DNA of 64,000 nt. It comes from Candidatus Woesearchaeota archaeon. GTDB lineage: Archaea > Nanobdellota > Nanobdellia > CAZCWL01 > CAZQAZ01. The position numbers and the translations under genes are program-made. Positions 10-61,237 of this stretch are shown here, in pieces; position 1 is the stretch's first letter; every line of letters starts with the position of its first letter. The stretch lies in NCBI GenBank assembly GCA_964591855.1, contig CAZQAZ010000002.1:36851-100850 (forward strand). Reading direction: 5' to 3'. Below the pieces are notes generated by a model. The model did not search any database, had not been told where the DNA came from, and saw only the letters and a list, made by a program, of their open reading frames with translations.

Positions 10-2979
10 TTGAGTAGTCTTGGAAGTTTGACATGCGAGACTATAGAGAGATTAGAAAGAGAATCAGGTGTTATAAAGAATGTGGGTGAGGGTTACTTTG
101 TTAGTGAGGAATATAATTCTATGTATAATTACATTCCAGAGTATTGGGGAGAGGTTGATGATAACTTCAAAGGGACACTTGACTTGATGAAAGAAATATT
201 TGAGAAGGGGGTAGATTGGGAAGTAAGTCCAAAGCTAACTGTACCTAGTTACTTGGATTCAAGGTACCTTGAATACGAGGTTACAGCATATTCATTTGAT
301 CAAAATTTCTGTACGAATGGAAGACTAAGTAGTGAATCTAAAGGGTTATATACTCTAAAAGGGCAGTGTAATAGCAAGGATCTCCAGACCGATGAAACTT
401 GTAAGGACCCTTCAGTATATCCAAGCGAAGATGACGAATCCAAATATGCTGGCAGAGCCTTTAGAGATGATCTAAGTAACGATGATAATTACTTCTGTTC
501 AGACTTTACGTGTCATGCATGTTATAGAGGTCCAGAGGACATGTGGTTTAGCGGTGAGGCTAAAGAGTCGGAAAAGTTAAGTTTCGGACCATTCTGTCCT
601 ACAGGTATAAGCGTAAGCAATTCTTATGTTTATGGGATAAATTTAACTCTTAAGCCAGGAGCGTATCCAAAGGAGTGGACACCTGGTTTTGTGGTTTATA
701 TAGAACCTGACTATGATTTAGGTGTGAGTAAGGATGATTTAGAAAATGTACAAGTTAATATCTCAAATGTAGATCCCATAGGCAGGGAAGTAGACCACCC
801 CCTTTGTGAGGAAGTCACAGTATACGGTAAAGATGGCAATATTCTTACTGCAGATGAAGAGGGATGGTATACTGGTGCTAAAAAGGTTGTATGTAAACTA
901 GACTGGACGAAGCATGATGATCCAAGTGATGCGTTATATTACCTCGTATACGGTGGACCGACTAGATTAATCCCTGATAGCATTAATCTAACCTCCTACT
1001 TCCGTATAAAAATGAAAGAAGGAGACAACAGCAAAGCACATGTCAACTTCTTTATAGATATGGGTGTTGTTGGTAGTGATAGTGCATCAAGTCAAGGTGT
1101 GACCCCAGTTCTTCACGAGTATGATTGTTATAATGGGATAGACGATGATGGAGATGGAGCTATAGATCAAGATGACGATGATTGTAAGGAGGTTTGTAAT
1201 AATGGTGAAGACGATGACCACACAGTAAGCTCTAAAAAATTTGTAGAGATAATAAAAGGTTTTTATGAGGATCAAAATGATGAGTGTTACCAAGATTATT
1301 CCTGTGCTTTACAAAAAGCTATACAAAACGATCTTTTAACAGATACAGACCCCACTACTGGTGTTGATAGGGATGATTGGAAGTGTCACGAATATTCATG
1401 TACAGACGGGTCTGACGAGTATGATCCTAATAAATTCCCTGAGTTTTTCAACGACAACGATGGCAATGCGGATGGGAAAGATCCCGACTGTTGGGTTTAT
1501 GCAGACTTTTCTTGCTTAAGAGATTATGATCCAAGCAATCCATATACAACAAGCAAATTAAAAGATGGTGCTGAGGTGTTAAAACTTGTAGCAATAGTCA
1601 AAGTAAAAGATGAAGATGGGAATTGGCACTTTGTTAGAAGTGTTGATCTGGGTACAAGCGTTGTGGAGAACTACATAAACTTTTGTCCAACAAGCGAGAA
1701 TGATGAGGGACTCGTCTCCTTCTCCGGAGCTAATAATGGTTTGGTATCTATAGACTATCTTGGGACTGAGAGAAATTTCAGACCAATGCAGAGCCAGATC
1801 TCTCCTGGACTAGAAAAACCAATTGAAACTCCAGAAATACAGCCCATAAGAGGTCCATTTAGAATAGTACCTATAGAACCTGCTGACAAAGACATTGTTA
1901 CAGGAGATAGTGTTGAACTGAAGGCAGATGTTTTCAATGGGGATTCAAACTATCTTTATAGGTTTTACGTTAAGGACGTAACAAACCCTTCGGAGGGGGT
2001 GGAGACATGTGATGGAAGTGTGAAGAAATTGGAGGACAAACTAGAAGCTAGCTGTACATTTGAGGGCTTGAAAGAAGGACATGTATATGAATGGTATGTA
2101 GGAGCATATGATAAAGATGTGCCTGTGGGAACATTCTCCGATAAAAGTTTATTTAGAGTATCACCTGGTCCTGGAAGTATTTGCTACGATTACAAGGGAA
2201 ATGAGATTCCTTGTTCGTCCTTCGCAACTAAAAAGTATATAGATAGAAATCTTGTTACCCTTCCTTTAAGCTTCAAGTATGGTGCGTCAGTACACAAAAC
2301 GTATGAGTCAGAGGAACCACCAACGCCTAAGAACCCATCTTGCGGTGATTATCCAGTGGTTCAGTACTTCCCTGAAGAAGATAGGGCGAGTGATTTCTTA
2401 TTCGCATATAAGATACCTATTGAATCGTGTACAGGAAGCGACCAATGTAAGAAATGTACAATACGTTGTGGAATAGAGAGTGGAGGTATACTAAGTGAGA
2501 GTAAAGAAAGTGAGATCCTATCAAATGGTGAGGTTTGTAGTTTAGTTTGCTACGAAGAGAATGGTGATGAGGAATGCACAATATGGTGTAATCCATCTGA
2601 ACCGGAAGTGTCATGTTCTTGTAGTAAGAATGTGGCTAATGATCTTTATTATGATTACTACAACAAAGATGGCGTCCAAAGCAACGTTCGATGTAAAGAT
2701 GAGGAAGGCAAAGTTGAGTGTGTTGTGGATTACTTGGACTCGGATACAGGCGAAACAAAGAGGGTTTGCGATGTGATACACGATAAAACATGCGATGAAG
2801 AAAGGTGTGTATCTTGGGATTCAAATGATAATTGTGTGCCCGAGAGCTTTATTGCGTTTGAGAATAGAACTCTTGTTAATATGAGCTTTAAGTTCAAGTT
2901 TGATATAGATTACAATGCTTTGATCTCGCTTTACTCTAATGAAGATAGAGTACCAATGTTAATAGGGAGGGCAATATGA
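10..2979 (+). CDS. Large acidic cysteine-rich secreted protein; 5' end lies outside the window; contains a MopE/thrombospondin-like Ca-binding motif (CYNGIDDDGDGAIDQDDDDC) and an Ig/Fn3-like segment
   Basis: Open frame runs from the window edge for 989 aa. Very high Cys and Asp/Glu content. The CxDxDxDGxxDxDDDC motif was read directly. Its stop overlaps the next start (ATGA). Confidence 0.55.
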   Translation: MSSLGSLTCETIERLERESGVIKNVGEGYFVSEEYNSMYNYIPEYWGEVDDNFKGTLDLMKEIFEKGVDWEVSPKLTVPSYLDSRYLEYEVTAYSFDQNFCTNGRLSSESKGLYTLKGQCNSKDLQTDETCKDPSVYPSEDDESKYAGRAFRDDLSNDDNYFCSDFTCHACYRGPEDMWFSGEAKESEKLSFGPFCPTGISVSNSYVYGINLTLKPGAYPKEWTPGFVVYIEPDYDLGVSKDDLENVQVNISNVDPIGREVDHPLCEEVTVYGKDGNILTADEEGWYTGAKKVVCKLDWTKHDDPSDALYYLVYGGPTRLIPDSINLTSYFRIKMKEGDNSKAHVNFFIDMGVVGSDSASSQGVTPVLHEYDCYNGIDDDGDGAIDQDDDDCKEVCNNGEDDDHTVSSKKFVEIIKGFYEDQNDECYQDYSCALQKAIQNDLLTDTDPTTGVDRDDWKCHEYSCTDGSDEYDPNKFPEFFNDNDGNADGKDPDCWVYADFSCLRDYDPSNPYTTSKLKDGAEVLKLVAIVKVKDEDGNWHFVRSVDLGTSVVENYINFCPTSENDEGLVSFSGANNGLVSIDYLGTERNFRPMQSQISPGLEKPIETPEIQPIRGPFRIVPIEPADKDIVTGDSVELKADVFNGDSNYLYRFYVKDVTNPSEGVETCDGSVKKLEDKLEASCTFEGLKEGHVYEWYVGAYDKDVPVGTFSDKSLFRVSPGPGSICYDYKGNEIPCSSFATKKYIDRNLVTLPLSFKYGASVHKTYESEEPPTPKNPSCGDYPVVQYFPEEDRASDFLFAYKIPIESCTGSDQCKKCTIRCGIESGGILSESKESEILSNGEVCSLVCYEENGDEECTIWCNPSEPEVSCSCSKNVANDLYYDYYNKDGVQSNVRCKDEEGKVECVVDYLDSDTGETKRVCDVIHDKTCDEERCVSWDSNDNCVPESFIAFENRTLVNMSFKFKFDIDYNALISLYSNEDRVPMLIGRAI

Positions 2980-5078
2980 GAAAATTTGTTTATATTGCTG
3001 CTGTTGTATTGATTCTGCTAGTTGTACATCTGTCACTAGGGCTGCAGTACGACCAGAATACTAAGTGTGGAGATAAGGCCTTATCTAACAAGTTTGTTTT
3101 CTCTATTGATAACGGCTGTAAGCCATACGGTCAGAGTGGTAAGTATGTATTTACTTTTAGGGATGGGTTAGCAGCTAGAGGGGCATGTTTTGCAGAGGAT
3201 GGAAGATGTACAGAAAGCAGGTGTGATTTCTCACAACCAGATGGTTCCTTTTGTGCAGTAGGTGTTGGCATAGATAAAGGTGCTACGGAGTATGGTGCTA
3301 TTTGTAGTAGTAAAGATTATGCAGCATGGGACAACTCTTCAGGAGCATGCGTCGAATGTTCAGGAATATATGAGCTTGGAAAGTATGCCGACCAAAAAGA
3401 TATATACTTATCTCCAGAGAGTCCGCGTATAGACTCAAGTATAATGACTTTGCCAAAAGACACTCTTGGTGAGACAAGAAAGACAGTAGAGTCAGGTTGT
3501 GCAATTAGGATGGGATCTCCACTTGATGTTTATTGGTGCGATGAGTACTATCCCTTCTCTGAGGGCGAAGAATTAAACGAAGATCAAATTGACTTTTACC
3601 TTGATAAAGGAATATTTAGGCCAGATTCCTACAGGAAGGTTATTAAAAGTGAAGGTGATGACTTTGAAAAGTATGAATACTCGGATCCTATTCCCTCTAC
3701 AGAACTTCCACCGATAGCAACAGAGTGTTATACAAAGAATAAGTTTGGACAAGGGAAGTGTGCAGCTTACTGTGGTTATGATGGACAGTTGCATGCTATG
3801 GAATGTGTTGACGATAATGAGTGCCCAGACGCATTCCTCATCACCAAAGATCCAGACTCATCGGACTACTTCCCAAGATATGAAATAAGAAGATCTGTGA
3901 GGCACTGTACAAGGAAACTCCCATTTGAATGTGCAGTCGATTCCGAAGAGGATTTGGATGACTCAAGACAGGCATGTGCAGCTTACGGACTTCAATACAT
4001 TAAAGCAGGAGAGGAAAATGTAGGAGAGTATGTAGACACAGATACACTTGGATGTTGTGGAGATGATGTTTATGCAAATGGGAGACCAAAGGAATTTATA
4101 AGGTACAGGGTGGTTGTTGGAGGAAGGACAGATTATAGTGATGTAGCTTGTTGTGGAGGAGAGGATAGATGTGTATACAATGGCAAGTGTTACAAAGAAG
4201 GATCAGCTGTTACCATAGATGGAAGGAAAGCACATTGTTATAACGGTGTTTGGGTGGCAAGAGGCTTAGACTTATATTATGGCTATCCTTCATATGTAGA
4301 ACTTCCAAAGTGTGGAGACTATATATGTGATGTCTCCACAGGTGAGAATTGTTTCACCTGCCCAATAGACTGTAGCTTTGATAGAGAATTCTCAAGTGTG
4401 GAAGTGTTTGACAAGGAAGTAATGCACAAAGGAGATAAGGATTATTATCCAGACGAAGTTGGAAATTACCATAACAATTCCTTTGATCTTACATGGTCCG
4501 ATAAGATAGTATGCGCTCCGTACTCCAACTTAAAATATAAAAGTCTTTATGGCTGGACTAGAGAAAAGACTAATTTCAATAATTCAAGAGTTGTTGTAAA
4601 GTGCGATAGTGACGAAGGTAAGGGTTGCGACGATGAGTTATCCTGCGAAGGACTATTCTGGTTCAAGCAATCCTCTAATGCTTTCTGCGTTAAGGCTTCG
4701 CCTGGGGATAAGCTTGAAGTTGAGTTGGAGGATGAAAATAGTGGTGATCACAGCAAGATCTTCACTGTAGAAGAAATAGATCCAACAGCAACAGACAGGA
4801 CGAAACCATTTGGATGCTTAAACAAAGGGATAGTATGTTTTTATGTTGATGTACTTGGATTTGACTCCCATAATGTGGAAGAAGACTACGTAGATAAAAT
4901 TAAGAGTGTTAAATACATTCAGTATCCTAAATCAGTTAGATCAACATGTGAATATGATTCGGAATGTGAATCTCATAACTGTGCTAAGTTTGGAGTGACA
5001 GGTGTGTGCTGTCCTTATGGTTACAAATTCAACGGAGAGGAGTGTTACCTTCCAGAGCAGTTTGATTACGACTCTTAG
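2976..5078 (+). CDS. Cysteine-rich secreted/membrane-anchored protein (700 aa) with N-terminal hydrophobic signal/anchor
   Basis: ATG overlaps the upstream stop. N-terminus MRKFVYIAAVVLILLVV is hydrophobic. Many paired Cys (CCGG, CxxC). Confidence 0.6.
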   Translation: MRKFVYIAAVVLILLVVHLSLGLQYDQNTKCGDKALSNKFVFSIDNGCKPYGQSGKYVFTFRDGLAARGACFAEDGRCTESRCDFSQPDGSFCAVGVGIDKGATEYGAICSSKDYAAWDNSSGACVECSGIYELGKYADQKDIYLSPESPRIDSSIMTLPKDTLGETRKTVESGCAIRMGSPLDVYWCDEYYPFSEGEELNEDQIDFYLDKGIFRPDSYRKVIKSEGDDFEKYEYSDPIPSTELPPIATECYTKNKFGQGKCAAYCGYDGQLHAMECVDDNECPDAFLITKDPDSSDYFPRYEIRRSVRHCTRKLPFECAVDSEEDLDDSRQACAAYGLQYIKAGEENVGEYVDTDTLGCCGDDVYANGRPKEFIRYRVVVGGRTDYSDVACCGGEDRCVYNGKCYKEGSAVTIDGRKAHCYNGVWVARGLDLYYGYPSYVELPKCGDYICDVSTGENCFTCPIDCSFDREFSSVEVFDKEVMHKGDKDYYPDEVGNYHNNSFDLTWSDKIVCAPYSNLKYKSLYGWTREKTNFNNSRVVVKCDSDEGKGCDDELSCEGLFWFKQSSNAFCVKASPGDKLEVELEDENSGDHSKIFTVEEIDPTATDRTKPFGCLNKGIVCFYVDVLGFDSHNVEEDYVDKIKSVKYIQYPKSVRSTCEYDSECESHNCAKFGVTGVCCPYGYKFNGEECYLPEQFDYDS

Positions 5079-5080
5079 GA

Positions 5081-6325
5081 GTGAATAAAATGGTATCAAG
5101 TAAAGCTGTAGTTTTTGTTGTCTCGACGATAATAGTAGTGATAACCTTGTTTTACTTTGCTTTACCTGTTACATCAATTCTTCATGCTTCGGCAGTCGAA
5201 CTGAACATGAAATCTTACTATGCTTTAACCGATGCTATAAAAGAAGCAAACACAAAAGGCATGGGAATAACAGATAAAATCTACCTTCAGAACAATTATT
5301 TCATAGTCTTTTTCAGGAATAATGAAGTTCTTGATAAACTTGTTAAAGGGGAGATATCGGGGTTTGAGGTCAAAGAGTATGTTTTTGATGGGAGTAGGTC
5401 AGGTTATATGTATTACAGGTCTGGTGTAGATAAGAAAGTGTATGAAGTGGACAGTAAGGCGTTTTATGGTGAAGACGAATTGAACAAGTGCGATATGGAT
5501 GAAAACTGCGTATGTTTGGTGAATTTAGATTACTATGATCCCAGCAACATTAACACGTGGATATACCAAATAGGTACTGAGCAGGGCGGGTTTGGTTGTT
5601 TAGATAGAGTATCCATCCAAGATACAACTATGAATAAATGGGAGACAAATACAGAACCGTACTTTTATGAGGTGAAGCTTTTCAAGCCACTAGGATGTTC
5701 TATCCCACAGAATAATATGAAGGCACCAATTCTGGAGTACAGAGATGGTGAAGGGAAAACACACAGGTTCTTTACGGATTTCTCTACGCTTGCCTTCATG
5801 GATCAATTTATATCCAAAGTTGGGAAGAACTTTACCTTGACTTTCGTTGAGTGTAAGCCTATGAAGGAATTATGTTCATGTGATATCTGTAGTCTATATG
5901 CAGATGAATACTCATGTACAGGAACAGGCTACGAGGAAGGTAGCCACTTTGGATGTGCATGGGATAGTGAGAAAGGAATGTGCTACAATGAGAAAAATTA
6001 TGAAAACTCAACCAACGACTGTTCGTTATGGATAATAAGTGATAAGGTGCGTCAGATATATTCTATCACCGAAAGGTCTAAGTTTGATTACATAATCTTT
6101 AAGAAAGAAGGCTGTGCTTTGCAGTGGTTTGATTCTTCGAAGAGGCCAATTGGCACAGACTCTATCTTTTATGAAGATTATGGAGGAGAGCTATTTGTAG
6201 AGGGGAAGGGCGAGGATAAGGATAAGATTGGAGCATGTGAGCCATGTTTCCAGACTATACCTGTGGAGCAATGTGGGGATCAACAACCTTGCTGTAAAGA
6301 GGAGGCAAAGTGTTCTCCCATATAG
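5081..6325 (+). CDS. Cysteine-rich surface protein (414 aa) with class III-like signal (SSKA/VVFVVSTIIVVITLF) and a C-terminal CCK...C module
   Basis: Third gene of the translationally coupled operon. N-terminal basic stretch followed by a hydrophobic helix. C-terminus is CEPCFQTIPVEQCGDQQPCCKEEAKC. Confidence 0.55.
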   Translation: MNKMVSSKAVVFVVSTIIVVITLFYFALPVTSILHASAVELNMKSYYALTDAIKEANTKGMGITDKIYLQNNYFIVFFRNNEVLDKLVKGEISGFEVKEYVFDGSRSGYMYYRSGVDKKVYEVDSKAFYGEDELNKCDMDENCVCLVNLDYYDPSNINTWIYQIGTEQGGFGCLDRVSIQDTTMNKWETNTEPYFYEVKLFKPLGCSIPQNNMKAPILEYRDGEGKTHRFFTDFSTLAFMDQFISKVGKNFTLTFVECKPMKELCSCDICSLYADEYSCTGTGYEEGSHFGCAWDSEKGMCYNEKNYENSTNDCSLWIISDKVRQIYSITERSKFDYIIFKKEGCALQWFDSSKRPIGTDSIFYEDYGGELFVEGKGEDKDKIGACEPCFQTIPVEQCGDQQPCCKEEAKCSPI

Positions 6326-13796: not shown

Positions 13797-13868
13797 GGGC
13801 TTGTGGTCTAGGGGTATGACGTCGCCCTTACACGGCGAAGGTCGCCGGTTCGAATCCGGCCAAGCCCA
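13797..13868 (+). tRNA. tRNA-Val (anticodon TAC)
   Basis: Cloverleaf folded by hand. Acceptor GGGCTTG/CAAGCCC, anticodon loop CTTACAC, T-arm GCCGG-TTCGAAT-CCGGC. No encoded CCA. Confidence 0.85.
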
Positions 13869-17996: not shown

Positions 17997-18069
17997 AGCC
18001 CCGTCGTCTAGTGGTCAAGGATGCGGGCCTTTGGAGCCTGAGACCCCGGTTCGAATCCGGGCGGGGCTA
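17997..18069 (+). tRNA. tRNA-Gln (anticodon TTG)
   Basis: Acceptor AGCCCCG/CGGGGCT. Anticodon stem CGGGC/GCCTG with loop CTTTGGA. T-arm CCCGG-TTCGAAT-CCGGG. The D-arm pairing is imperfect in the hand fold. Confidence 0.75.
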
Positions 18070-30056: not shown

Positions 30057-30302
30057 ATGGAGACAATTATATGTAACACAAAGCTTAAACAGCTTAGAGG
30101 TCTTATGTTTAGATTCAAAAAAGTTAGAGCTGTCTTCCCGGCAATACCTGTCCACACTTGGTTTGTCTTCTACCCAATAAAGTTAAAGTGGCTAGACAAA
30201 AACAAGAATTTAATCAAGGAAGAAATAGCAAAACCCTTCTCACTTAGGGTCTTCCACCCCCCAAAGAACGCATCCCATCTAATCGAGGAACCTCCTAATT
30301 AA
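30057..30302 (+). CDS. DUF192/COG1430-like small protein
   Basis: LRGLMFR and WFVFYPIKLKWLD motifs resemble DUF192. The match is weak. Confidence 0.4.
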   Translation: METIICNTKLKQLRGLMFRFKKVRAVFPAIPVHTWFVFYPIKLKWLDKNKNLIKEEIAKPFSLRVFHPPKNASHLIEEPPN

Positions 30303-30664
30303 CTGCAGGTAGATGCTGAGCAGTTTAGTCGACAAGATATTCCCGAAGGGTCCGTTAGTCTACATATTGTTAACTCTTTACATGTCATAGATTTACCACC
30401 GACAGTTACGGGCTCTGTACAGAAACTTATACCTACAGGTATACAATCACATTCCCCATCTTCATCATCATCTACTAATGATGTTATTAGCTCTTGGTCT
30501 TTGGCGCATACATTCTTACAGTGTGCTATTGCTTGAGCTGAAGATATACCTGCACCACCACCTTTTTGTGCGGATGTGAAGAATAGAAGTATAGCAGCAA
30601 GAGTAATAACTGCTAACGCCAAGACAATTATAAACTCAATTGGAATGGATACCCCTTTTTTCAA
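30299..30664 (-). CDS. Class III signal peptide (type IV pilin-like) cysteine-rich protein, paralog 1
   Basis: Pilin-like N-terminus KKG/VSIPIEFIIVLALAVITLAAILLFF followed by HCKNVCAKDQE...CKELTICRLTDPSGISC. The track ORF extends to 30742 (TTG) and overlaps the upstream gene, so start is placed at the in-frame TTG giving MKKGV. Confidence 0.6.
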   Translation of the reverse strand: MKKGVSIPIEFIIVLALAVITLAAILLFFTSAQKGGGAGISSAQAIAHCKNVCAKDQELITSLVDDDEDGECDCIPVGISFCTEPVTVGGKSMTCKELTICRLTDPSGISCRLNCSASTCS

Positions 30665-30705
30665 GTTACCACCTAAGTCTAAGAGACATTTGTTCTTTTT
30701 AAGCT

Positions 30706-31107
30706 TTAAGTTTGGCCAGACTGTCCACAAGAGGCCACACAAGTTCCTCCAAAGTTGTCTACTAGTTTACATGTTGTAATTTCATAGCATGGCGTCTTTT
30801 TGCCTTCAATGTAATAATGTCCATTACAGAACTTTGATGCAAGATTACCATACTCCTTACTACTATCTATACATCCTTCGTATCTAAGCTCCCCAGAATC
30901 TAATCTTTCGGTAAGATTTATCCCAGCAGGTAGAGCAGATCTGTCTTGCATACATAAGTTCAAACAAAAGGAAGTAGCCTTAATTGAAGAAGTTCCACTT
31001 TCTCCTTTAGCAGATTTTGAGATAAGCATAACGGCTGCTGCTAAGACCATTAGACCTATCCCAACTGCTACTAGAAAATTCATCATAGCACTTCCTTTCT
31101 TTGGCAT
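30706..31107 (-). CDS. Class III signal peptide (type IV pilin-like) cysteine-rich protein, paralog 2
   Basis: MPKKG/SAMMNFLVAVGIGLMVLAAAV followed by FCLNLCMQDRS...CYEITTCKLVDNFGGTC. Confidence 0.7.
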   Translation of the reverse strand: MPKKGSAMMNFLVAVGIGLMVLAAAVMLISKSAKGESGTSSIKATSFCLNLCMQDRSALPAGINLTERLDSGELRYEGCIDSSKEYGNLASKFCNGHYYIEGKKTPCYEITTCKLVDNFGGTCVASCGQSGQT

Positions 31108-31145
31108 AATTATCTAAAGAATGCTGAGTATATAAACTTTACAAT

Positions 31146-31706
31146 CTAACAGTTCACCCATGAGGCTAAGCAGCCCTCTTTTGGCAATTTACAGCATGCG
31201 CCAATGTTTAAGCATTTTTGTTTGTTAAGGATAGTGCTGTGGTAGTCTGGTCCTATGTAATTCAATTTACATAGTCTCTCCATTTTTCTTGTACCAACTT
31301 CACATGTATCACCTATACAACTAGGTATTCCACCATCTAATACACATGCAATTTCACATGCTTTTTTCATATCAACAGTTAGATTCGTAATCTCACAAGT
31401 CTCACCAAATGAATCCTTGATTACACAGCTTGTTAGGTCAAAGCATGTTACAGTTTCTCCACCTATTCTAAACTTAAGTTTCGCGAACTCTGATTCTTGA
31501 GACGTAACGCATACACCTTCTATGCTAACACTATCTAACCTCGAGTCGTTAAGACATGCAGCTTCACACATCTTTATAGCAGTGGTCCTTGAGACAGTTC
31601 CTATCCCAAGCAGTCCTACATTCCTAAGCATGATAAGAGCGACCAATATAACAGCTACTATTATAACAATTGTTATAAGCATGGTGAATTGTATTCCTCT
31701 TTTCAT
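31146..31706 (-). CDS. Class III signal peptide (type IV pilin-like) cysteine-rich protein, paralog 3 (two Cys modules)
   Basis: MKRG/IQFTMLITIVIIVAV. Module A is KMCEAACLNDS...TCFDLTSCVIKDSFGETC. Module B is KACEIACVLDGG...CCKLPKEGCLASWVNC. The track start 31715 (MVFM) lies 9 nt upstream. Confidence 0.7.
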   Translation of the reverse strand: MKRGIQFTMLITIVIIVAVILVALIMLRNVGLLGIGTVSRTTAIKMCEAACLNDSRLDSVSIEGVCVTSQESEFAKLKFRIGGETVTCFDLTSCVIKDSFGETCEITNLTVDMKKACEIACVLDGGIPSCIGDTCEVGTRKMERLCKLNYIGPDYHSTILNKQKCLNIGACCKLPKEGCLASWVNC

Positions 31707-32230
31707 GAACACCAACTCTTACTAAAGTATTTCCCATCTCTTATACACTTCTTCCCACCAACCGTCTCGCAGTCTGTTTTCAAAACAGTCCAAAGCTCAC
31801 ATAGCTTTGGGAACCTATCAGGTTCTTGGTCTGAGAGAAGACCATAACTTCCACCGTCTATCTCGCACGCCTTCTGACATGTTTTAATCTTGCTGAATGT
31901 AATGGGAGATACAGCACAGATGCCATACTCTGTTGACATCCTACACTCTGTTAAGTTGTAACAATTAACTTTTCCCATACCTTCCACATTTAGGTATGTG
32001 TGAATAAAAGAATAGTCATCACTATATGCACATGAGCCTTCTAGGTTAACGGCTCCATGTATAGAGTCCTCTGAACATAGATCATCGCATTTTGATATCG
32101 CACTAAGTTGTGTTATTGTTGCTGCACTTGGCTTCGTAAGGGATCCAGATAAATAAAGACCAACGAGAAGAACCATAACCCCCACGGCGACTGCTAGCAA
32201 AAAGCTAAATCCTGCTTGCAAAGCTTTCAT
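31703..32230 (-). CDS. Class III signal peptide (type IV pilin-like) cysteine-rich protein, paralog 4
   Basis: MKALQAG/FSFLLAVAVGVMVLLV followed by KCDDLCSEDS...NCYNLTECRMSTEYGIC...CQKACEIDGG. Confidence 0.7.
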   Translation of the reverse strand: MKALQAGFSFLLAVAVGVMVLLVGLYLSGSLTKPSAATITQLSAISKCDDLCSEDSIHGAVNLEGSCAYSDDYSFIHTYLNVEGMGKVNCYNLTECRMSTEYGICAVSPITFSKIKTCQKACEIDGGSYGLLSDQEPDRFPKLCELWTVLKTDCETVGGKKCIRDGKYFSKSWCS

Positions 32231-32257: not shown

Positions 32258-33913
32258 TTAGTTTTTCCTTACAACAACTGCTACTCCACTATCAAAGTCC
32301 ATTATCTCCTTTGGACTAAGTAAAGCATCTCCATTACCAATGTACTCTCCTTTCTCGTCTACTATTGCAACTTGATCCCCAGCTAGGAAGCTGCCTACGT
32401 CCTTAACAAACTTACAAAATACACTCTTCCCTTTCTTAACAAAGGGTACAGCCTCCTCATCTATTTTAACGTAGTAATCTTTGGCCAACTTGAATATGTC
32501 CCTCATACCTTCGTCCCCGAATACTATCCTTCCATCACCAGGTCTTATGGTTGCGTACACTCCCCCTTTCTTTAAGATTCTCCTTATCCTTCCAGTCTTT
32601 CTGCTCTTTTCAATCACGGCTCCTTTCAAGACTTTCTTACCTATGCCTTTCCCAAATTGAAAGTCCACAAGCTTTTCGATTCTTTTCATGTCGCTGAATT
32701 CTTTCTTGGAGAATTTGAATACATTTTCTCCTCCAAGCATGTTGAATGGAAACACTTCTTTGAAAGAAGGATTCACTTTAGAACCTACTCTCTCTTTGTA
32801 AAGTCTCAAGGCAACCTTAACATCAGGTCTTAGCTTTGTTTCCATTCCCAAGAAATGAGGTGCCTTTTTCTTCTTTAAACTTACAAACTCCTCCATGAAC
32901 TTACCATACTTTTTAAGTAAATGAATGTATGCAGAGTAAATGTCTGCATGGAGCCTTGCCCTATTTACTAGAAACTCAAAGAATCTCCCACCTTTTATAG
33001 CAACCCTTATCTTCCTTATCTCATCCAATGTAACATTCAGATTGTGTCTTGCAATTAATTCTTCTGTCATCTCAGATGGTGATCTTCCTTTACAGACATC
33101 GCATGTACATGGCAATTCATGCATTTCCTTAAGCTCATTAATGTCTATAATCTTTTCAATAGTCATGTATGCGCCCCTGCTTGCATACAAAGCATATGCA
33201 GCTGAATCAAATATGTCAACACCCATTGCTACAAGAAGAGCGAATATCTGTGGATTGCCTGCACCAAAAGCATGAATTGGTATGTTCTGTGGCAAGCTCA
33301 TTTTGCAAGTCATTATTATGTCTACAAGGTCTTTGAAGTTGTAGTTTTCCATAAGGGGAACTATCCCACCTATTGCTGCTATGTCCCCATATACCTTAGA
33401 ACAAGCTTTCTTTCTTAGGTCTAAGAACTTGCCTCCTTGAATAGGCTGACACAGTAACCTATCTTCTTTCATTTCCTTAGCAGCTTCTATCCTTTTAAAG
33501 GTCTCTTCCAACTTTCTTTTGGCTGTAGTGTAATCATCGTCAGGGAATGTGAATACGTCTAAAGGAGTTATTATATCAGATCTTATCTTCTTTTGAAATT
33601 CAAGGGTTTCTTCATTTGTTATGCGTGCATCTCCAATAGAATACATTTGGAATGTTCCAGAATCCGTATATATTGGCTTATTCCACCTGAAGAACTTATG
33701 TAGTCCTTTCTTTTCTATCTCTTTTCTTGATTTGGAGCTCTTGATGATGTAAGAGTTAGTGATTATCAAGTCAAAGTCCTTCAAGTCTTTGATTGGGACT
33801 GTCATCTTGTTGGGGTTTACAACTACGGCAATAGTAGGTGTAGTTATCTTTTTGCCTCTTATGTTCAGCTCTCCAACTCTTGCTAATCCATCCTTAGCTT
33901 TAATCTGAAACAT
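32258..33913 (-). CDS. tgtA: Archaeosine tRNA-guanine transglycosylase (ArcTGT) with C-terminal PUA domain
   Basis: Catalytic YTDSGTFQ and PLDVF motifs. Zinc site CTCDVCKG. C-terminal PUA domain (AIVDEKGEYIGNG). Confidence 0.85.
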   Translation of the reverse strand: MFQIKAKDGLARVGELNIRGKKITTPTIAVVVNPNKMTVPIKDLKDFDLIITNSYIIKSSKSRKEIEKKGLHKFFRWNKPIYTDSGTFQMYSIGDARITNEETLEFQKKIRSDIITPLDVFTFPDDDYTTAKRKLEETFKRIEAAKEMKEDRLLCQPIQGGKFLDLRKKACSKVYGDIAAIGGIVPLMENYNFKDLVDIIMTCKMSLPQNIPIHAFGAGNPQIFALLVAMGVDIFDSAAYALYASRGAYMTIEKIIDINELKEMHELPCTCDVCKGRSPSEMTEELIARHNLNVTLDEIRKIRVAIKGGRFFEFLVNRARLHADIYSAYIHLLKKYGKFMEEFVSLKKKKAPHFLGMETKLRPDVKVALRLYKERVGSKVNPSFKEVFPFNMLGGENVFKFSKKEFSDMKRIEKLVDFQFGKGIGKKVLKGAVIEKSRKTGRIRRILKKGGVYATIRPGDGRIVFGDEGMRDIFKLAKDYYVKIDEEAVPFVKKGKSVFCKFVKDVGSFLAGDQVAIVDEKGEYIGNGDALLSPKEIMDFDSGVAVVVRKN

Positions 33914-33964: not shown

Positions 33965-35251
33965 ATGGCAACGATAATACTCTCTTCAGGTAAGTGTAGA
34001 TGGGGAAAGTGTGTATTCTGTGGATGGGGTAAGTTAGTTGCAGATAGGGATGAGAATAGAGTTAAGCGTGACTTCCTTAGGAAGCTTTCTAACATTAAAG
34101 GCGAAGATACACTCTCCATATTTGCTTCTGGATCTTTTTTGGACGATTTACAATTCTCCCCAGAACTGAGAAAGTGGATTGTAGAGAAATTAAAGGAGAA
34201 AGGCTTTAAGAACCTAACTATAGAATCTAGGCCTGAGTTCATAACCAAAGAGAAACTTGAAGAGTTTAAGGGATTAAACCTCACAGTTGCTATTGGGTTA
34301 GAAGTTGCAGATGATGAGGTTCTTAAGAAGTTAAAGAAAGGGATAACCCTAAAAGACTTTGAGAGAGCAGCAAAAATAATACACGATTCTGGAGCCAAGC
34401 TTAGGGTTTACTTGCTTGTAAATCCCCCATTTGTGGATGATCCAAAAGAGTCTTTTAGGAAATCTGTTGAGTACGCTAAAAAGTTTGCGGATTCAATAGT
34501 CGCTATAAATTGCTATCCTCACTCTAAGTCAGAGTTGTTTGACATGTGGGTAAGGGGTGAGTGGAGACCTTTAGACGAGGAGGAGTTTAAAGAAGTGACG
34601 AAGGGTTATGATGTGGAGCTAGACTTCAGCAATTATAATTTCATCCCGAAGTTTCCTAAAGATAAACAAGAGAGGATAGTAGGTGTCTCTAAGGATACTT
34701 TACTTCACCCATATTATGAAGTTTGGCAGGATTATTTTCAGAGATTTTACAAGGTTCCAAAGGGTAAGAGATTTGCCCTTTTCTTACCATGTTCTTACAT
34801 TAAGCCTTACAGAAGATCCCCCACACACAGAGCTATCCTGAGAAAGCTACTAAAGCTTCCAACATACAAACAAATACATCAGATTATGATCTCATCACCT
34901 GGAGTTATACCAAGGGAGTTTGAGAACTACTATCCATTTAACTCATATGAGTGGAACGAGAAAGACGAGACAGAAGAGATAAAGAAACTTTACATAGACG
35001 TTAATAAAGAAAGGATTAAGAAGTATTTGCGAAGGCACAAATATGAGAAAGTATTCTCATATTTGAAGCCAGACTCAGAATCTTATAAGGCTCTTAAAGA
35101 AGCATGTGATGAGCTTGGGATAAACCTAATAAATCTTGTGGACGAGGAGAAGTACTTAGAACTTAAAGATAGAATCAAGGCAAGAATTTTAACACATGAA
35201 AGTTTGTTGGAATCGATGTGTAATAAGCTCTTGGAAGAAACGAAGAGTTAA
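33965..35251 (+). CDS. Elp3-like radical SAM protein (CX4CX2C), candidate archaeosine-pathway RaSEA-like enzyme
   Basis: N-terminal SSGKCRWGKCVFCGWGK parallels the Elp3 CPHGKCVMC motif. Divergently adjacent to tgtA. Pathway assignment is inference. Confidence 0.5.
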   Translation: MATIILSSGKCRWGKCVFCGWGKLVADRDENRVKRDFLRKLSNIKGEDTLSIFASGSFLDDLQFSPELRKWIVEKLKEKGFKNLTIESRPEFITKEKLEEFKGLNLTVAIGLEVADDEVLKKLKKGITLKDFERAAKIIHDSGAKLRVYLLVNPPFVDDPKESFRKSVEYAKKFADSIVAINCYPHSKSELFDMWVRGEWRPLDEEEFKEVTKGYDVELDFSNYNFIPKFPKDKQERIVGVSKDTLLHPYYEVWQDYFQRFYKVPKGKRFALFLPCSYIKPYRRSPTHRAILRKLLKLPTYKQIHQIMISSPGVIPREFENYYPFNSYEWNEKDETEEIKKLYIDVNKERIKKYLRRHKYEKVFSYLKPDSESYKALKEACDELGINLINLVDEEKYLELKDRIKARILTHESLLESMCNKLLEETKS

Positions 35252-35259
35252 AATGAAAG

Positions 35260-38200
35260 TTAACACTGTAGCCATGAAGCTATGCAGTTGTATTCTGGGA
35301 GCTTACAGCAGTAGCCGCTTGCCTTACACTTCTCTAGGTTGTCTTGATTTGTTTGGAAGGTTGGCCCTATCTTGTTAAGCTCACAAACTGTAGGGGTTGG
35401 ACTTTCACCCTCTTCGAAGTTCCACACGTCACTTCCACAGCTATTCAAGCTCCCACAAGTGACAGGCTCTCCACCATCTTTCAAACAAGCCTCCACACAA
35501 GCTTTTCCAAAATCCGTTGAATCCCTGCTTATGTAACAATCACCCAAACTGCAGGTTAGCACTTGATCACAATATACAGTTGTTCCTTCGACATTGAAAC
35601 TTAAGCTTGCAAAGTCTGAACTATTAAAGTAACACACCCCATTGATGTTAACAAACTCTTTGTTTGTGTCATTCATACAAGCTTCCTCACACATCCTCTG
35701 AATCTCAGGATGTGTGGATATTATCTTCTCCACATTTGTATGTTTGATTAATGTGTTACAATCGTACACGTTATTGGATCCAAGATCGTTAGGGAGTATA
35801 TCACCTTTTGTATCCAGTAGACACACATTTCCTTCCATCTTGTTATTGTTGAAAGTCACAGGAGTATCAAACACAAACCCATATACATTGTTCACGAAGT
35901 TGTTACTGTCAAACACACCACTGCATTCGCTACATAGCACACCATAGTAATTAGAGTAGAATGTATTACCTACCACGTTTACATTTCCACCTATAGCACT
36001 TATGCCAGAGTCTGAGTTCGAGAATGAAGATGATTTGATATTTCCAACACCAGAGACTCTGACATAATTTAACCCAGTTATATCGGAGTCTTCGATTGTT
36101 ATATTACCATAAGATTCAATCTTAAAGTCCTTATCTGCATAATGGATTTTAACCCCCTTCAGCGTGAGGTTTCCATAGTTCACCAAACTACATGGAGATG
36201 TACAGTTGATGTACAAGTTAACATTCTCTAAAGTAAGATTTCCATGCACAGTTGTATTCTTAAGGAGCACAACACCTAAGTTCTTAACATTACAGTTGTC
36301 GGATTTCTCAACTATCCAATCTTTGTACGTTGAAGGATAGCACCTATTCTCTTCGAGAACAGCAATAATCTTTTTTGGAGAATCAAATCTAACTTTAAGT
36401 GTGGTGTAGTTATAATGTCTCCAGTAATTTAAGACCTGAGCACCTGTTACGTTGACTGTGTAATCTCCCACATCAATTAAGTTAAAGTCCTTGTCGAGAT
36501 AATACGCCTGTCCACACCATGTTTTAACTGGCGAAGAAATGTATCCTGCATCACATTCTAAAATCCTTGTGGTTGGATAGGGTCTTATCTTATTTCCATT
36601 TGTGTCTTTAATTTCTATCTCTATTATGCTTGTTGATGCAATTAAACCTTTAGTATTGCTATCAGGCAAGAGTGTGTTTTTCGAACTCAAGCTATTAAAG
36701 AAAGCTTCGATATCACTCCCAGATATGTCTGAGTTGACGAGCATTATTAAGAATGAACCTCCTTTTAAAGTGTTCCCTTCTATGTCAACATTGTTTTCCG
36801 AAGTAAGTCTTATAGGATTGTTATAGTACTTGTAGTCCTTTACGGTTACAGAGTTGTGTTTAATGGAACCTGAGGAGTTGGATACAGAGATCCATCCAAC
36901 ATTCATATCATTTGATGTTAAGTTTATTGTAGAGTTTGTTATTGCTAAACCAATTGATTGATCTACATCATTGTTGCTAAACTCCACCGTTGAGTTGTAA
37001 GAGTAGAGAGGATAGACTACACCAACTATGTTGCTCTCATTAATCTTAGCTTTTGAGTTAAGCACATAAAATCCATAGTATGTTTTGTAACTTCTACCGC
37101 CAGAGAATGTGAAGTTGGTGTTTGATATGTTCACACCCTTTTCATCGGATATGTAAACACCGCCATACATTCTCTTATATGGACCCGACATGAATCTATT
37201 CTTATAGAATGTGACATTCTTGTTATTTATGAGGTAGACCTCAAATATGTAACTTGATGTATTTGTGTGGAAGGTGTTATTTGTTATGTTGATGTATGAG
37301 TTTGTTGAATAGATCCCCCTCGCTCCGAAAAATGTGGAGTTGGAGACAGTTATGTTAGAGCCTCTTGCGAAGAGTCCATAATAACTCTTGTCCACCACAT
37401 TTTTAAGTGTCAAGTTAGACTCAACCGAAACAACACTTACTCCCTTGTTGTTGAAGAAAGCGTCCTTAATTTCCCCACTTGAGTTGAAGTAGTAAAGAAG
37501 CTTATTGACCTTACCAAAATCTCCAAATGATCCATAAAAGTCTTGCTTGGTGTTGAGATTGTATAGAAGTATCTTAACATTGTCTGCTTTGTTACCCCTT
37601 CCATATACTTTGTTGGTGTTGTGGATTCCTAACTTATAGTCGTATGAGAACGAGTTACCGAAGAATAATGCTTCTCCGTAATTGTAGACGAAGGAATATG
37701 CATGATCCCATGTGTTACTAATAAACCTTGTCCCTACAGCATAGTTTTTAACAGGGATGTATGCGTTTGTGAATACATTCTTTAATAGAACAGTGGGCTC
37801 CACTATGTTTAAAGCCCTCCTTCCAAAGAAAGTGTTTCCAACGAGTTTAATCTTCTCGCCCACATCAAAGTCTTTGTCTAGTTCTATGTTATTCCCTTTT
37901 AGAACGATATGATTACTAAGTGACAGTTGGCTGGTTTTGATACTGTTTCCTCTTATCACAGCCTTACTTGTTCTCACATCTAACTCTGAGTTGTGAAGTA
38001 TTGATTTTTGGATGTTCAATGAGGATCCTTCTAAAGCAGTTATGTATGCCTTACTAACAAACGAGCTGGCTATTAGTATTTGACCACCCTGGTTAGCTTG
38101 TATGGTCTTTGAGTTTCCATTAAGGTAAGAGTTTATTAAAACAAGCGCTCCACCGTCCTTCACCACAATAGGATACTTTAAGTCTATGTCTTTACCATAA

Positions 38201-39273
38201 CAAACCTCCACGTCTTTAATCTCCCAAGTTCTATCTTCTGGTATTCTACAATTGGATATGTCGTACACTCTATATTCGTTGTTTGTGTAGTTTGCATCGC
38301 CTTGTGTGGAGTTTACCACAAGTCTCAATGGAAGAATAGAACCCATATTGAAAGCATCGTATTTTGTGTTGAGCATTATAGTGCCTGCAGTCCCAACTGG
38401 GAGTGTTCCTTTTGTATACTCCAGAAGCTTTTGGTTTCTTTTGTTGAACAAGGTTAAGTTATAGTCCTCAGCGTCTACGAGTCCAAGATTATAAACTGAA
38501 GTCTGAAGAGTTCCTTCTAGAGGAGTGTAGTATAACACGTATGGCTTAATTTCTGCTTGGGAACCCATATCAAATTTAATTGATATGGTATTCGAATTAA
38601 AGAGATGTGAGAAGTCATAAGGTTCAGAATCATTTGAGGCACCATTCTCTATAATAGCTTCGTATGTTCCATCGGCTCCAAAGTCTACTCTTATTTTCCC
38701 AGAGTAGCTTGTTGTCAAGTTTGCGAAGTAGATGACAGCTCCTTGTGGTAAAGTAATATGTACTACGTCCCCTGGATTAATAGTGTTTCCCTCATTAAAA
38801 GTGTTGGTTACGTTGATCTCATTAAGAGTGAAGTTAAACTCAGCACCAAGTATTGTTTGGTCTGGAAGATAAACGAGTGAACAGTCTTGTGGACACGTTT
38901 CTTCTGTTTCATTCCCATTACATATTCCATCTCCACAGTATGCCCCAACACATGTTCTCTTGGATACGACACAAGTACGTCCAGAACTATCGGTCAATGT
39001 ACATTTAACGTAGTTATAACAGTCCTTCGAACAGAAGTTTGGAGCCAGACCTTGGCTACAGAACCCCCTATCAGATGTAACGGTTCTGACGATATTATTG
39101 TCCTCTTCACATAACTCCCTACATTCTTTCTCAAGGCTAACTATACTTTGAACTTGCTCCGTTCCACCTTTAGATCTGATAACCAAGAAGTATACTGCTG
39201 CAAGAACGGCAACTGCTATTATTACAACAGCTAGAATCTCTACGCTGCTAGCCCTCTTGTAAGCTTTGTACAT
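35260..39273 (-). CDS. Giant (1337 aa) class III signal peptide surface protein/adhesin candidate: pilin-like N-terminus, Cys module A, long N-x-S/T-rich beta-helix-like repeat region, C-terminal Cys modules A and B
   Basis: N-terminus MYKAYKRA/SSVEILAVVIIAVAVLAAV. Then EKECRELCEEDNN...CSQGLAPNFCS. Central region is rich in N, S, T and Y with dozens of NxS/T sequons (NITNNTFHTNTSSY...). C-terminus MCEEACMNDTN...YCDQVLTCSLGDC and KACVEACLKDGG...CCKLPEYNCIASWLQC. Confidence 0.75.
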   Translation of the reverse strand: MYKAYKRASSVEILAVVIIAVAVLAAVYFLVIRSKGGTEQVQSIVSLEKECRELCEEDNNIVRTVTSDRGFCSQGLAPNFCSKDCYNYVKCTLTDSSGRTCVVSKRTCVGAYCGDGICNGNETEETCPQDCSLVYLPDQTILGAEFNFTLNEINVTNTFNEGNTINPGDVVHITLPQGAVIYFANLTTSYSGKIRVDFGADGTYEAIIENGASNDSEPYDFSHLFNSNTISIKFDMGSQAEIKPYVLYYTPLEGTLQTSVYNLGLVDAEDYNLTLFNKRNQKLLEYTKGTLPVGTAGTIMLNTKYDAFNMGSILPLRLVVNSTQGDANYTNNEYRVYDISNCRIPEDRTWEIKDVEVCYGKDIDLKYPIVVKDGGALVLINSYLNGNSKTIQANQGGQILIASSFVSKAYITALEGSSLNIQKSILHNSELDVRTSKAVIRGNSIKTSQLSLSNHIVLKGNNIELDKDFDVGEKIKLVGNTFFGRRALNIVEPTVLLKNVFTNAYIPVKNYAVGTRFISNTWDHAYSFVYNYGEALFFGNSFSYDYKLGIHNTNKVYGRGNKADNVKILLYNLNTKQDFYGSFGDFGKVNKLLYYFNSSGEIKDAFFNNKGVSVVSVESNLTLKNVVDKSYYGLFARGSNITVSNSTFFGARGIYSTNSYINITNNTFHTNTSSYIFEVYLINNKNVTFYKNRFMSGPYKRMYGGVYISDEKGVNISNTNFTFSGGRSYKTYYGFYVLNSKAKINESNIVGVVYPLYSYNSTVEFSNNDVDQSIGLAITNSTINLTSNDMNVGWISVSNSSGSIKHNSVTVKDYKYYNNPIRLTSENNVDIEGNTLKGGSFLIMLVNSDISGSDIEAFFNSLSSKNTLLPDSNTKGLIASTSIIEIEIKDTNGNKIRPYPTTRILECDAGYISSPVKTWCGQAYYLDKDFNLIDVGDYTVNVTGAQVLNYWRHYNYTTLKVRFDSPKKIIAVLEENRCYPSTYKDWIVEKSDNCNVKNLGVVLLKNTTVHGNLTLENVNLYINCTSPCSLVNYGNLTLKGVKIHYADKDFKIESYGNITIEDSDITGLNYVRVSGVGNIKSSSFSNSDSGISAIGGNVNVVGNTFYSNYYGVLCSECSGVFDSNNFVNNVYGFVFDTPVTFNNNKMEGNVCLLDTKGDILPNDLGSNNVYDCNTLIKHTNVEKIISTHPEIQRMCEEACMNDTNKEFVNINGVCYFNSSDFASLSFNVEGTTVYCDQVLTCSLGDCYISRDSTDFGKACVEACLKDGGEPVTCGSLNSCGSDVWNFEEGESPTPTVCELNKIGPTFQTNQDNLEKCKASGYCCKLPEYNCIASWLQC

Positions 39274-39315: not shown

Positions 39316-39666
39316 CTAGCAGCTATTAGAGGTCACAACACAAGTTCTCCCATCTTCAAATGTTAGAACACATTTAGTTATGTCGTAACATCTCAAGGTT
39401 CTGCCTGCTATCTTAAATGAACCGCTACAGAAGTTTGGAGCTAGACCCTGTCCACAAGACCCATCTTCATATATCTCTCCACTAATAAGAAGCTGGTTGT
39501 CCTTAGCACAGGCAGCTTCACATGAGGACTTAGCATCGGATAGGGTTATAGACTCCCCAGATTGTGCTTTCCCTTTGAAAACTAGGTAAAGTCCAGCTAC
39601 CGCCACCATAGCACTTAATATGATAACGACTATCAAGTTTATCGAACTTTGTCCTCTCATCCACAT
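39316..39666 (-). CDS. Class III signal peptide (type IV pilin-like) cysteine-rich protein, paralog 6
   Basis: MWMRG/QSSINLIVVIILSAMVAVAG followed by SSCEAACAKDNQ...CGQGLAPNFCSG...CYDITKCVLTFEDGRTCVV. Closely matches the N-module of the giant protein. Confidence 0.7.
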   Translation of the reverse strand: MWMRGQSSINLIVVIILSAMVAVAGLYLVFKGKAQSGESITLSDAKSSCEAACAKDNQLLISGEIYEDGSCGQGLAPNFCSGSFKIAGRTLRCYDITKCVLTFEDGRTCVVTSNSC

Positions 39667-40076
39667 CTCACTCCTATAGCTTCTAATCTATCAACGACAC
39701 CAAGCTGTTCGGCATAATTACATATCTCTTCTTCATCGTAGCTTGAGAGCTCACCAAAGTAACATATCCCCCAAGGTGTTTCAGCTGAACATTGGACTAT
39801 GTCATAACAGTGTTTGGTCTTGCCACTTAACTTGAACTCAAGCTTTCCAAAATCTGACTTTGGATTTGTATAGCATTGTCCATCTATGCTTGTTATGTTT
39901 TTGTATTGGTCAAGCAGACAAAAATCGCTGCATTTTGATTTTAAAGATGCTCTTGAGAGGGAGCCGAGATTGGAGATGTAACCTTTATTGAATATGAAGA
40001 TGACTATTAGTATAACTGAGAGAGCAAGTAAAGCTGCTATGACATAGTTTATTCCCAGTGAAACACCTTTTTTCAT
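39657..40076 (-). CDS. Class III signal peptide (type IV pilin-like) cysteine-rich protein, paralog 7
   Basis: MKKG/VSLGINYVIAALLALSVILIV followed by KCSDFCLLDQ...HCYDIVQCSAETPWGIC. Confidence 0.7.
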   Translation of the reverse strand: MKKGVSLGINYVIAALLALSVILIVIFIFNKGYISNLGSLSRASLKSKCSDFCLLDQYKNITSIDGQCYTNPKSDFGKLEFKLSGKTKHCYDIVQCSAETPWGICYFGELSSYDEEEICNYAEQLGVVDRLEAIGVRCG

Positions 40077-61165: not shown

Positions 61166-61237
61166 GCGCCAATAGTCTAGTGGTTAGGATGCGGGCTTGC
61201 CAAGCCTGTGACCCGGGTTCGAATCCCGGTTGGCGCA
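61166..61237 (+). tRNA. tRNA-Gly (anticodon GCC)
   Basis: Acceptor GCGCCAA/TTGGCGC. Anticodon stem CGGGC/GCCTG with loop TTGCCAA. T-arm CCCGG-GTTCGAATC-CCGG. TATA-like TTTTATAAT/TAATAAAT upstream. Confidence 0.85.

Follow-up and report, generated by a model that had tools for sequence, protein, structure and literature searches.

The DNA stretch analysed here (hereafter the window) comprises 64,000 nucleotides (nt) of contig CAZQAZ010000002.1 (assembly GCA_964591855.1, forward-strand positions 36,851 to 100,850). Its source habitat is Guaymas Basin hydrothermal sediment (JGI 3300022188 / Ga0190313), and the source organism is a small-genome, probably DPANN-type, archaeon. At 30299-32230, four co-directional open reading frames (ORFs) lie in tandem, all on the minus strand and in the order D-C-B-A; the ORF list thereby bears out an earlier reading of the letters alone (the original prediction), which had described four consecutive minus-strand genes for pilin-like proteins at this position. 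Three further genes, F, E and BIG, are located on the same strand 3-8 kb away, and together with A-D they encode seven paralogous proteins. It is reasonably probable that these seven are surface proteins of the type IV pilin-like kind (with a class III signal peptide) and members of a lineage-restricted family in which an N-terminal hydrophobic helix is followed by a cysteine-containing head (module A) and, in some members, by a second module (module B).

The seven genes and their products

Gene D (31703-32230) encodes a protein of 175 amino acids (aa) with the N-terminus MKALQAG/FSFLL… (slashes within N-termini mark candidate processing sites), a hydrophobic helix, module A, a short variant of module B and 12 Cys; it corresponds to the module hidden Markov model (HMM) match P0003 (E 1e-39). 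Gene C (31146-31706; 186 aa, 16 Cys; HMM match P0001, E 7.5e-44) begins with MKRG/IQF…, followed by a hydrophobic helix and modules A and B. The ATG of gene C and the stop codon of gene D overlap (ATGA), which suggests that the two genes are translationally coupled. Gene B (30706-31107; 133 aa, 8 Cys) begins with MPKKG/SAMMNF…, carries module A, and has the TATA-like sequence aaagtttatata ~30 nt upstream of its ATG; its product is P0006, an identical protein present in NCBI, JGI and ENA. Gene A (30299-30664; 121 aa, 10 Cys) also carries module A, and its N-terminus, MKKG/VSIPIEFIIV…, is the most canonical class III start among the window copies. The original prediction was right about the presence of gene A and misplaced its start at 30742; based on the sequence, the JGI gene call and the orthologue P0007, the start is the TTG at 30664, with aggtgg 5 nt upstream of it.

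In the second group of genes, F (39657-40076; 139 aa) begins with MKKG/VSLGINY… and has module A plus a C-terminal extension with one extra Cys pair. The start of gene E (39316-39660; 114 aa, 8 Cys; relative P0004) overlaps the stop codon of F (ATGA), and its product combines the N-terminus MRG/QSS… with module A. BIG (35260-39273; 1337 aa) begins with MYKAYKRA/SSVEIL…, and its leader and helix are followed by a first copy of module A (38935-39150), a Cys knot CGDGICNGNETEETCPQDC (38860-38934, BIG residues 114-131), a long all-beta region, and a C-terminal copy of modules A and B (35263-35712). The module HMM match of BIG (P0002, E 7e-52) accordingly consists of two matched stretches.

A profile of modules A and B, the search that the original prediction had proposed, was scored against 1.84 billion (1.84e9) cluster representatives, and it matched 24 proteins at E<=1e-3. 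In an independent assembly (NCBI GCA_053993735.1), all seven ORFs are intact with 96-100% aa identity, as are housekeeping genes. The array is not a product of chance, because the paralogues match the module HMM at E 1e-12 to 1e-52 and because the seven ORFs are intact in that independent assembly.

Cysteine pattern, N-termini and predicted structure

In all window copies, module A follows the motif C-x3-C-x2-D … G-x-C … F … C-[YF]-x-[IL]-T-x-C … G-x-x-C. Across the 26 sequences that we aligned, the invariant columns are the two Cys of C-x3-C, the F, and the two Cys of C-x5-C; the D is at least 90% conserved, and the remaining one or two Cys pairs are optional. The shared module of the original prediction is thus conserved in a proper alignment; its six Cys fit the minimal copies in the window, but only four are invariant in the family, and the opening motif given as C-x3-C-x-(D/N) aligns instead as C-x3-C-x2-D. 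Module B, with the motif C-x2-A-C-x2-DGG … LC[EK]L … C … C, was likewise predicted and exists; its carriers are C, D and the C-terminus of BIG, and the variant in D is shorter and lacks the CCKLP…ASW segment. An origin of module B by divergence from module A is not supported: hhalign aligned only a 16-residue C-x3-C-x2-D helix, at a probability of 8%.

The copies of module A are only 23-46% identical in pairwise comparison, so the window members are old paralogues. The closest pairs are the head of E and the N-terminal module of BIG (46%), and C and the C-terminal module of BIG (39%). Cysteine totals in the mature part are even in all 26 members (6, 8, 10, 12, 14, 16 or 40). In 20 of the 26, the loop from C-x3-C to C-x5-C holds as many Cys as follow the hairpin, and the other six keep parity. 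G-x-C and G-x-x-C are missing together in P0013, P0017, P0018, P0019 and P0021, and F-C and the terminal C are missing together in C, D, the BIG C-terminus, P0005, P0008 and P0009. Because optional Cys are gained and lost pairwise and the totals are always even, the Cys of module A are better read as disulfide partners than as metal ligands, although any exact pairing is presumptive; in gene C numbering, C47 and C51 are predicted to bond with C88 and C94, and C66 with C104.

Most relatives start with M[KR]KG[IVL]S[IL]P[IV][ENQ]F[IV][IV], followed by ~22-25 uncharged hydrophobic residues and then by a Gly/Ser-rich hinge. The family consensus therefore has the arrangement of the FlaFind-type definition, a [KR][GA] site directly before an uncharged H-domain of ~20 residues; under the strict pattern, A, F and E fit and C nearly does, so that three to four of the seven window members qualify. 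In all six frames of the window, scanning revealed a [KR][GA] site followed by a helix only at the start of family genes and at 5081-6325. Archaeal prepilin-peptidase sites on record include KG/QV, RA/LS and RA/VS, and the [KR]G-before-H-domain start of the family resembles these processing sites (PMC4371748). Other secreted proteins of the window have Sec-type signals of a different look (e.g., MRKFVLLAMLVLCLGLSYA/AD). The class III (type IV pilin-like) N-termini of the original prediction are supported by the conserved motif of the relatives and their charge-free helix, unlike the Sec signals of the window. The same N-terminal motif also occurs on at least one unrelated family of Cys-containing heads; DPANN-like contigs carry these in tandem arrays, and the motif is present in a metagenome-assembled genome (MAG) of Aenigmatarchaeota as well. 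Such conservation of the N-terminus while the heads vary is the pattern of pilins.

An AlphaFold prediction, also proposed originally, was run as AlphaFold2 (AF2) on gene C with the 26-sequence alignment. The model places a helix at residues 5-33 and, after a hinge, a second one at 40-54 with C47 and C51 in it; six short strands then lie within residues 59-105. The predicted local distance difference test (pLDDT) score is 84-96 over residues 41-110, giving a confident model of module A, and below 50 for module B. As modelled, the overall architecture of the gene C product is pilin-like; no fold match to pilins, defensins or toxins was found.

The middle of BIG (~1050 aa) is Asn-rich and predicted to be all-beta, with 32 N-x-S/T sequons compared with 23±4 in shuffled sequences. 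A single-sequence AF2 model of this region reached a pLDDT of 44, and its Foldseek matches were not significant; among these, the long top matches were right-handed beta-helix adhesins and lyases, which we take as a hint only. Two relatives, P0013 (791 aa) and P0017 (804 aa), combine a pilin base, module A and a poly-Gly linker with a large sequon-rich domain that has weak CarboxypepD_reg / Ig-like matches. Judged by sequence architecture only, BIG, P0013 and P0017 each have the organization of a modular pilin, that is, a complete pilin module joined to an independent module. As a separate observation, the short Cys knot of BIG (CGDGICNGNETEETCPQDC) has a counterpart in CGDYICDVSTGENCFTCPIDC, within a 700-aa protein elsewhere in the window (4300-4380), so that similar knots recur in different giant secreted proteins.

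Relatives and genomic context

Nearly all proteins matched by the profile are 98-181 aa long, with the module beginning at residue 37-43; P0013 and P0017 are two longer ones. Pfam and NCBIfam returned nothing meaningful for the seven proteins, all 26 members and the related pilin-like proteins, and a sequence search of the PDB with the family profile and with BIG gave no match. In a word-index protein search, gene C as query recovered only itself, the 26-sequence alignment recovered three proteins only, and the concatenated mature regions of the relatives recovered nothing. A scan of genome contigs found a single match, limited to the N-terminus, in the Aenigmatarchaeota MAG; a metagenome scan found arrays of other pilin-like proteins and no module-A member; and a viral-contig scan found no family member. 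Based on these searches, the family appears to be very rare. One relative, P0019, from an ENA contig of 523 bp, has MIKVKCQVCNRLF… in place of the pilin N-terminus and lacks the hydrophobic helix; because the contig is so short, a wrongly called start or an assembly chimera is a more probable cause than a real cytoplasmic variant.

Between the two groups of window genes lie an archaeosine tRNA-guanine transglycosylase (TGT) gene (32258-33913, minus strand) and, divergent from it, a radical-SAM/DUF5591 (rSAM) gene (33965-35251, plus strand), probably an archaeosine-pathway pair; this arrangement is conserved in a distant relative (L028). Gene order in GCA_053993735.1 is the same as in the window, F-E-BIG-rSAM-TGT-D-C-B-A-orf81-Memo. 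In the distant relative (31% GC, 44-64% identity in housekeeping proteins), a single 115-aa module-A gene is located between TGT and Memo, and a single 190-aa gene with modules A and B is located between a methyltransferase gene and the radical-SAM gene. Since the relative holds one family member at each of the two same positions, the window arrays are best explained as local expansions at conserved core-genome sites. The pilin-like genes are 30-40% identical between the two, compared with 44-64% for their housekeeping neighbours, and thus diverge faster.

The orf81 of this gene order is an 81-aa ORF (30057-30302, plus strand) convergent with gene A, for which the family libraries gave no match. 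The JGI, ENA and NCBI assemblies all annotate it as a gene, and its counterpart in the distant relative (L028 10345-10584) shares 64% identity, which argues that it encodes a real, conserved small protein, always found between the pilin gene or genes and Memo. The remainder of the window consists of archaeal housekeeping genes (FtsZ, ribosomal proteins, exosome, enolase, aIF2γ, aIF5B and GluRS) and three tRNA genes on the plus strand (13797-13868, 17997-18069 and 61166-61237), which are the only Rfam matches. A scan for sigma-70 promoters and terminators was uninformative, this being an archaeon.

At the start of the window (10-6325, plus strand) is the 3' part of a cluster of genes just upstream of Alba, comprising the tail of a 1259-aa Cys-rich protein, the 700-aa Cys-rich protein mentioned above, and a 411/414-aa protein that starts with MVSSKA/VVFVV… and contains 20 Cys. 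The whole cluster (window 10-6325 plus contig L016 1-11236) is co-directional and Pfam-less, with products of 315+, 197, 360, 611, 1259, 700 and 411 aa. Three of these products start with MRKSQ or MRKAQ followed by a transmembrane (TM) helix, a class III-like arrangement with Gln at +1. Giant Cys-rich secreted proteins account for two of the products; they contain 49 and 44 Cys as well as CGDxxC…CPxDC knots. On contig L025, which comes from the sequencing run of the distant relative and possibly from its genome, a co-directional Pfam-less cluster begins with the module-A gene P0020 and a 78-aa gene and runs up to Alba-FKBP; it is homologous to the cluster just described and collinear with it (phmmer E 1e-11 to 1e-40). 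Several cluster proteins start with MRKSQ…, MRKAQ… or …KKGQ… and then a helix; Ser at -1 in two of them is atypical, and Gln at +1 is as in EppA substrates (PMC4371748). Because P0020 heads the homologous cluster on that contig, the module-A family appears linked, through its gene neighbourhood, to a larger group of surface proteins, some pilin-like and some giant and Cys-rich. The 78-aa protein is Cys-free and pilin-like (L025 1233-1469, directly after P0020), and its start, …NQKG/VSLPVNVIVILIIAVV…, is class III-like; this minimal pilin-like protein is a candidate for the true major subunit of that relative. The Alba-adjacent cluster may form the core of an apparatus, surface-borne or pilus-like, that has no recognizable ATPase.

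Tandem arrays on contigs L004-L014 (e.g., L009 8155-10796, L013 9073-11694 and L006 7684-10781) encode still other small pilin-like proteins, which begin with MK(K)G[IL][SE]LP[IV][EN]… and are not recognized by Pfam. Their Cys-rich head is different and often ends in C-x-x-CGC[PS], and the arrays on L009 and L013 flank an Alba gene and follow genes for large proteins with an N-terminal TM helix. From their sequences, these arrays look like a broad, unannotated superfamily of DPANN-type pilin-like proteins. Compared with the module-A family, the pilin-like proteins of L003-L014 have nearly the same N-terminal motif (MKKGISLPIEMIV…), a similar size and a tandem arrangement, in some cases next to Alba, and differ in the head, which has no match to the HMM of modules A and B.

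Interpretation of the family

Under the pilin-like reading, a precursor would enter the membrane via its N-terminal hydrophobic helix, and a prepilin peptidase of the PibD/FlaK/EppA type, encoded elsewhere, would cut the basic leader after [KR][GA]. The helix would then mediate assembly or anchoring within a type IV filament-like structure. On the extracellular side, the Gly/Ser-rich hinge would bear the head of ~65 residues (module A), in which two invariant disulfides to C-x5-C, with one or two optional disulfides in addition, may tie the C-x3-C helix to a small beta-sheet. The small proteins would act as subunits, major or minor, with B, which has its own TATA-like element, as a candidate major one. 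BIG and the 791- and 804-aa relatives would be modular pilins whose pilin base displays a large adhesin-like domain, glycosylated and rich in beta-structure, perhaps for adhesion or host contact. A disulfide-stapled head may be an adaptation for stability, plausible for a hydrothermal habitat.

Several results weigh against this reading. At the processing site, B (KKG/S), D (QAG/F) and BIG (KRA/S) deviate at one position, +1 or -2. The curated models PF04021 (Class_IIIsignal), PF07790 (Pilin_N), PF01917 (archaellin) and TIGR02537 gave no match at E<=10 among the 26 members, and PF07790 was touched only by a protein of L003, which is not a member (E 0.039); formal membership by curated models therefore fails, given that PF04021, PF07790 and TIGR02537 do not match. 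Solved archaeal pilins carry beta-sandwich heads directly after the helix, and here a Gly/Ser hinge and a separate helix stand between the N-terminal helix and the head. As originally predicted, reading all ORFs of the window and scanning its membrane and unknown proteins against Pfam revealed no type IV pilus (T4P) ATPase, platform protein or prepilin peptidase, and none was found in the ~5 kb upstream or ~10 kb downstream. As a rule, archaeal pilin genes are stand-alone or in tandem outside T4P operons, often encoding major pilins (PMC4858521); because they are so commonly remote from the machinery, a window without it does not by itself count against pilins.

Some of the same results would suit membrane-tethered surface proteins that form no filament, with an uncleaved signal anchor or a class III anchor and with heads and BIG decorating the envelope. 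Sugar-binding proteins of the Sulfolobus bindosome use a class III signal for anchoring in this way. Such tethering would account for the hinge that separates helix and head, for the missing pilin family or fold match, and for the lack of assembly genes nearby, and many FlaFind-positive archaeal proteins are not pilins (PMC4371748). A plain anchor, however, would not be expected to keep K-G-[IVL]-S-[IL]-P-x-[ENQ]-F across different head families, and mature parts of ~75-150 residues, paralogues, tandem arrays and co-occurring pilin-like genes are typical of pilin sets (PMC4858521); we regard tethering without a filament, the main rival reading, as rather unlikely. The heads could also be Cys-stabilized mini-proteins (toxins, antimicrobials or host effectors), secreted or tethered, whose N-terminal segment serves for export only. 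With C-x3-C on a helix and its partner Cys within strands or beside them, their logic recalls the cysteine-stabilized alpha/beta (CS-alpha/beta) defensins, and the faster evolution of these small disulfide-rich heads relative to housekeeping genes would fit as well. Yet the partner motif is C-x5-C and not the C-x-C of CS-alpha/beta proteins, there is no defensin or toxin fold match, the helix is of TM length and lacks a signal-peptidase I site, the same base bears adhesin-like domains of 650-1200 aa, and the genes occupy conserved core-genome positions, all of which makes mini-proteins very unlikely.

A metal-binding domain, zinc-ribbon-like or Fe-S, is suggested by the arrangement of the four invariant Cys as two close pairs. 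Their spacings are C-x3-C and C-x5-C, though, rather than C-x2-C; no zinc-finger, ferredoxin or other Pfam or NCBIfam model matched and the PDB search was negative, so the modules match no known ferredoxin or zinc-finger family; and the domain would lie on the extracytoplasmic side of an export helix. Together with the pairwise gain and loss of the extra Cys and their even totals, this leaves metal binding highly improbable. That the family is so rare and has no annotation in the family libraries might raise the question of whether the ORFs are real at all, or left over from a mobile or viral insertion. This explanation is refuted by the conservation data and has next to no probability: the ORFs are intact in the independent assembly, gene positions are kept in the distant relative, GC content and skew match the surroundings, viral contigs gave no matches, and HMM E-values reach 1e-52.

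The pilin-like reading places the family beside known archaeal type IV pilins, namely Methanococcus maripaludis Epd, Sulfolobus Aap/Ups and Haloferax PilA1-6, which have the same basic [KR][GA] leader followed by a helix of ~20-25 residues. They are also alike in small mature size, in having several paralogues, and in genes that stand in tandem or alone away from the assembly operon (PMC4371748, PMC4858521). The family here differs in its lack of matches to PF04021, PF07790 and TIGR02537 and in its conserved Glu/Gln/Asn at +6 and Pro at +4. Thermoproteales clade 4E pilins and T4P components have conserved Cys that are thought to form stabilizing disulfides (PMC4858521; 10.64898/2026.04.22.720090). 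These Cys-rich pilins, including a Pyrobaculum pilin with disulfides, share with the present family a thermal habitat and the presence of Cys; there is no detectable sequence relationship, and lineage and Cys pattern differ.

Modular pilins, such as Streptococcus sanguinis PilB, display a functional domain (e.g., an adhesin) on a pilin base (PMC8179133), and BIG, P0013 and P0017 likewise graft a large domain onto a pilin module via a linker. The members here are archaeal and unrelated in sequence, and an adhesin function is putative, by analogy. BIG differs further by its second head copy at the C-terminus (modules A and B, 39-42% identical to the small pilin C), and we know of no description of a modular pilin that ends in this way.

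A more far-reaching proposal is that module A is a new pilin head fold acting as a portable, self-recognizing plug. The N-terminal pilin module would keep BIG in the filament, and its C-terminal modules A and B, which resemble the small pilin C most, would mimic the heads of that filament or of an adjacent one, or dock on them. With the proteins of the Alba-adjacent cluster added, a DPANN-type episymbiont would thus possess a host-attachment apparatus specific to its lineage, served by unconventional or very remote machinery; we consider this improbable. What is new is a rare family with an unannotated head domain and an unusual double-headed giant, within the well-known archaeal class III signal and pilin-like proteins. 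It is not a new kind of system, and the biology is expected rather than surprising.

How DPANN-type archaea attach to and exploit their hosts is largely unknown. Type IV filament systems and adhesins are present in DPANN (10.64898/2026.04.22.720090), and pili-like appendages, their subunits mostly unidentified, have been imaged on ultrasmall episymbiotic cells that by size are likely DPANN or members of the Candidate Phyla Radiation (PMC7906910). The locus described here is a conserved candidate attachment set invisible to family databases, comprising small disulfide-stapled subunits, giant pilin-adhesin fusions and a linked pilin-like cluster. An entire group of class III signal proteins of DPANN type escapes the curated pilin models, and the practical value of the family lies in annotation and in targeted structural or proteomic work.

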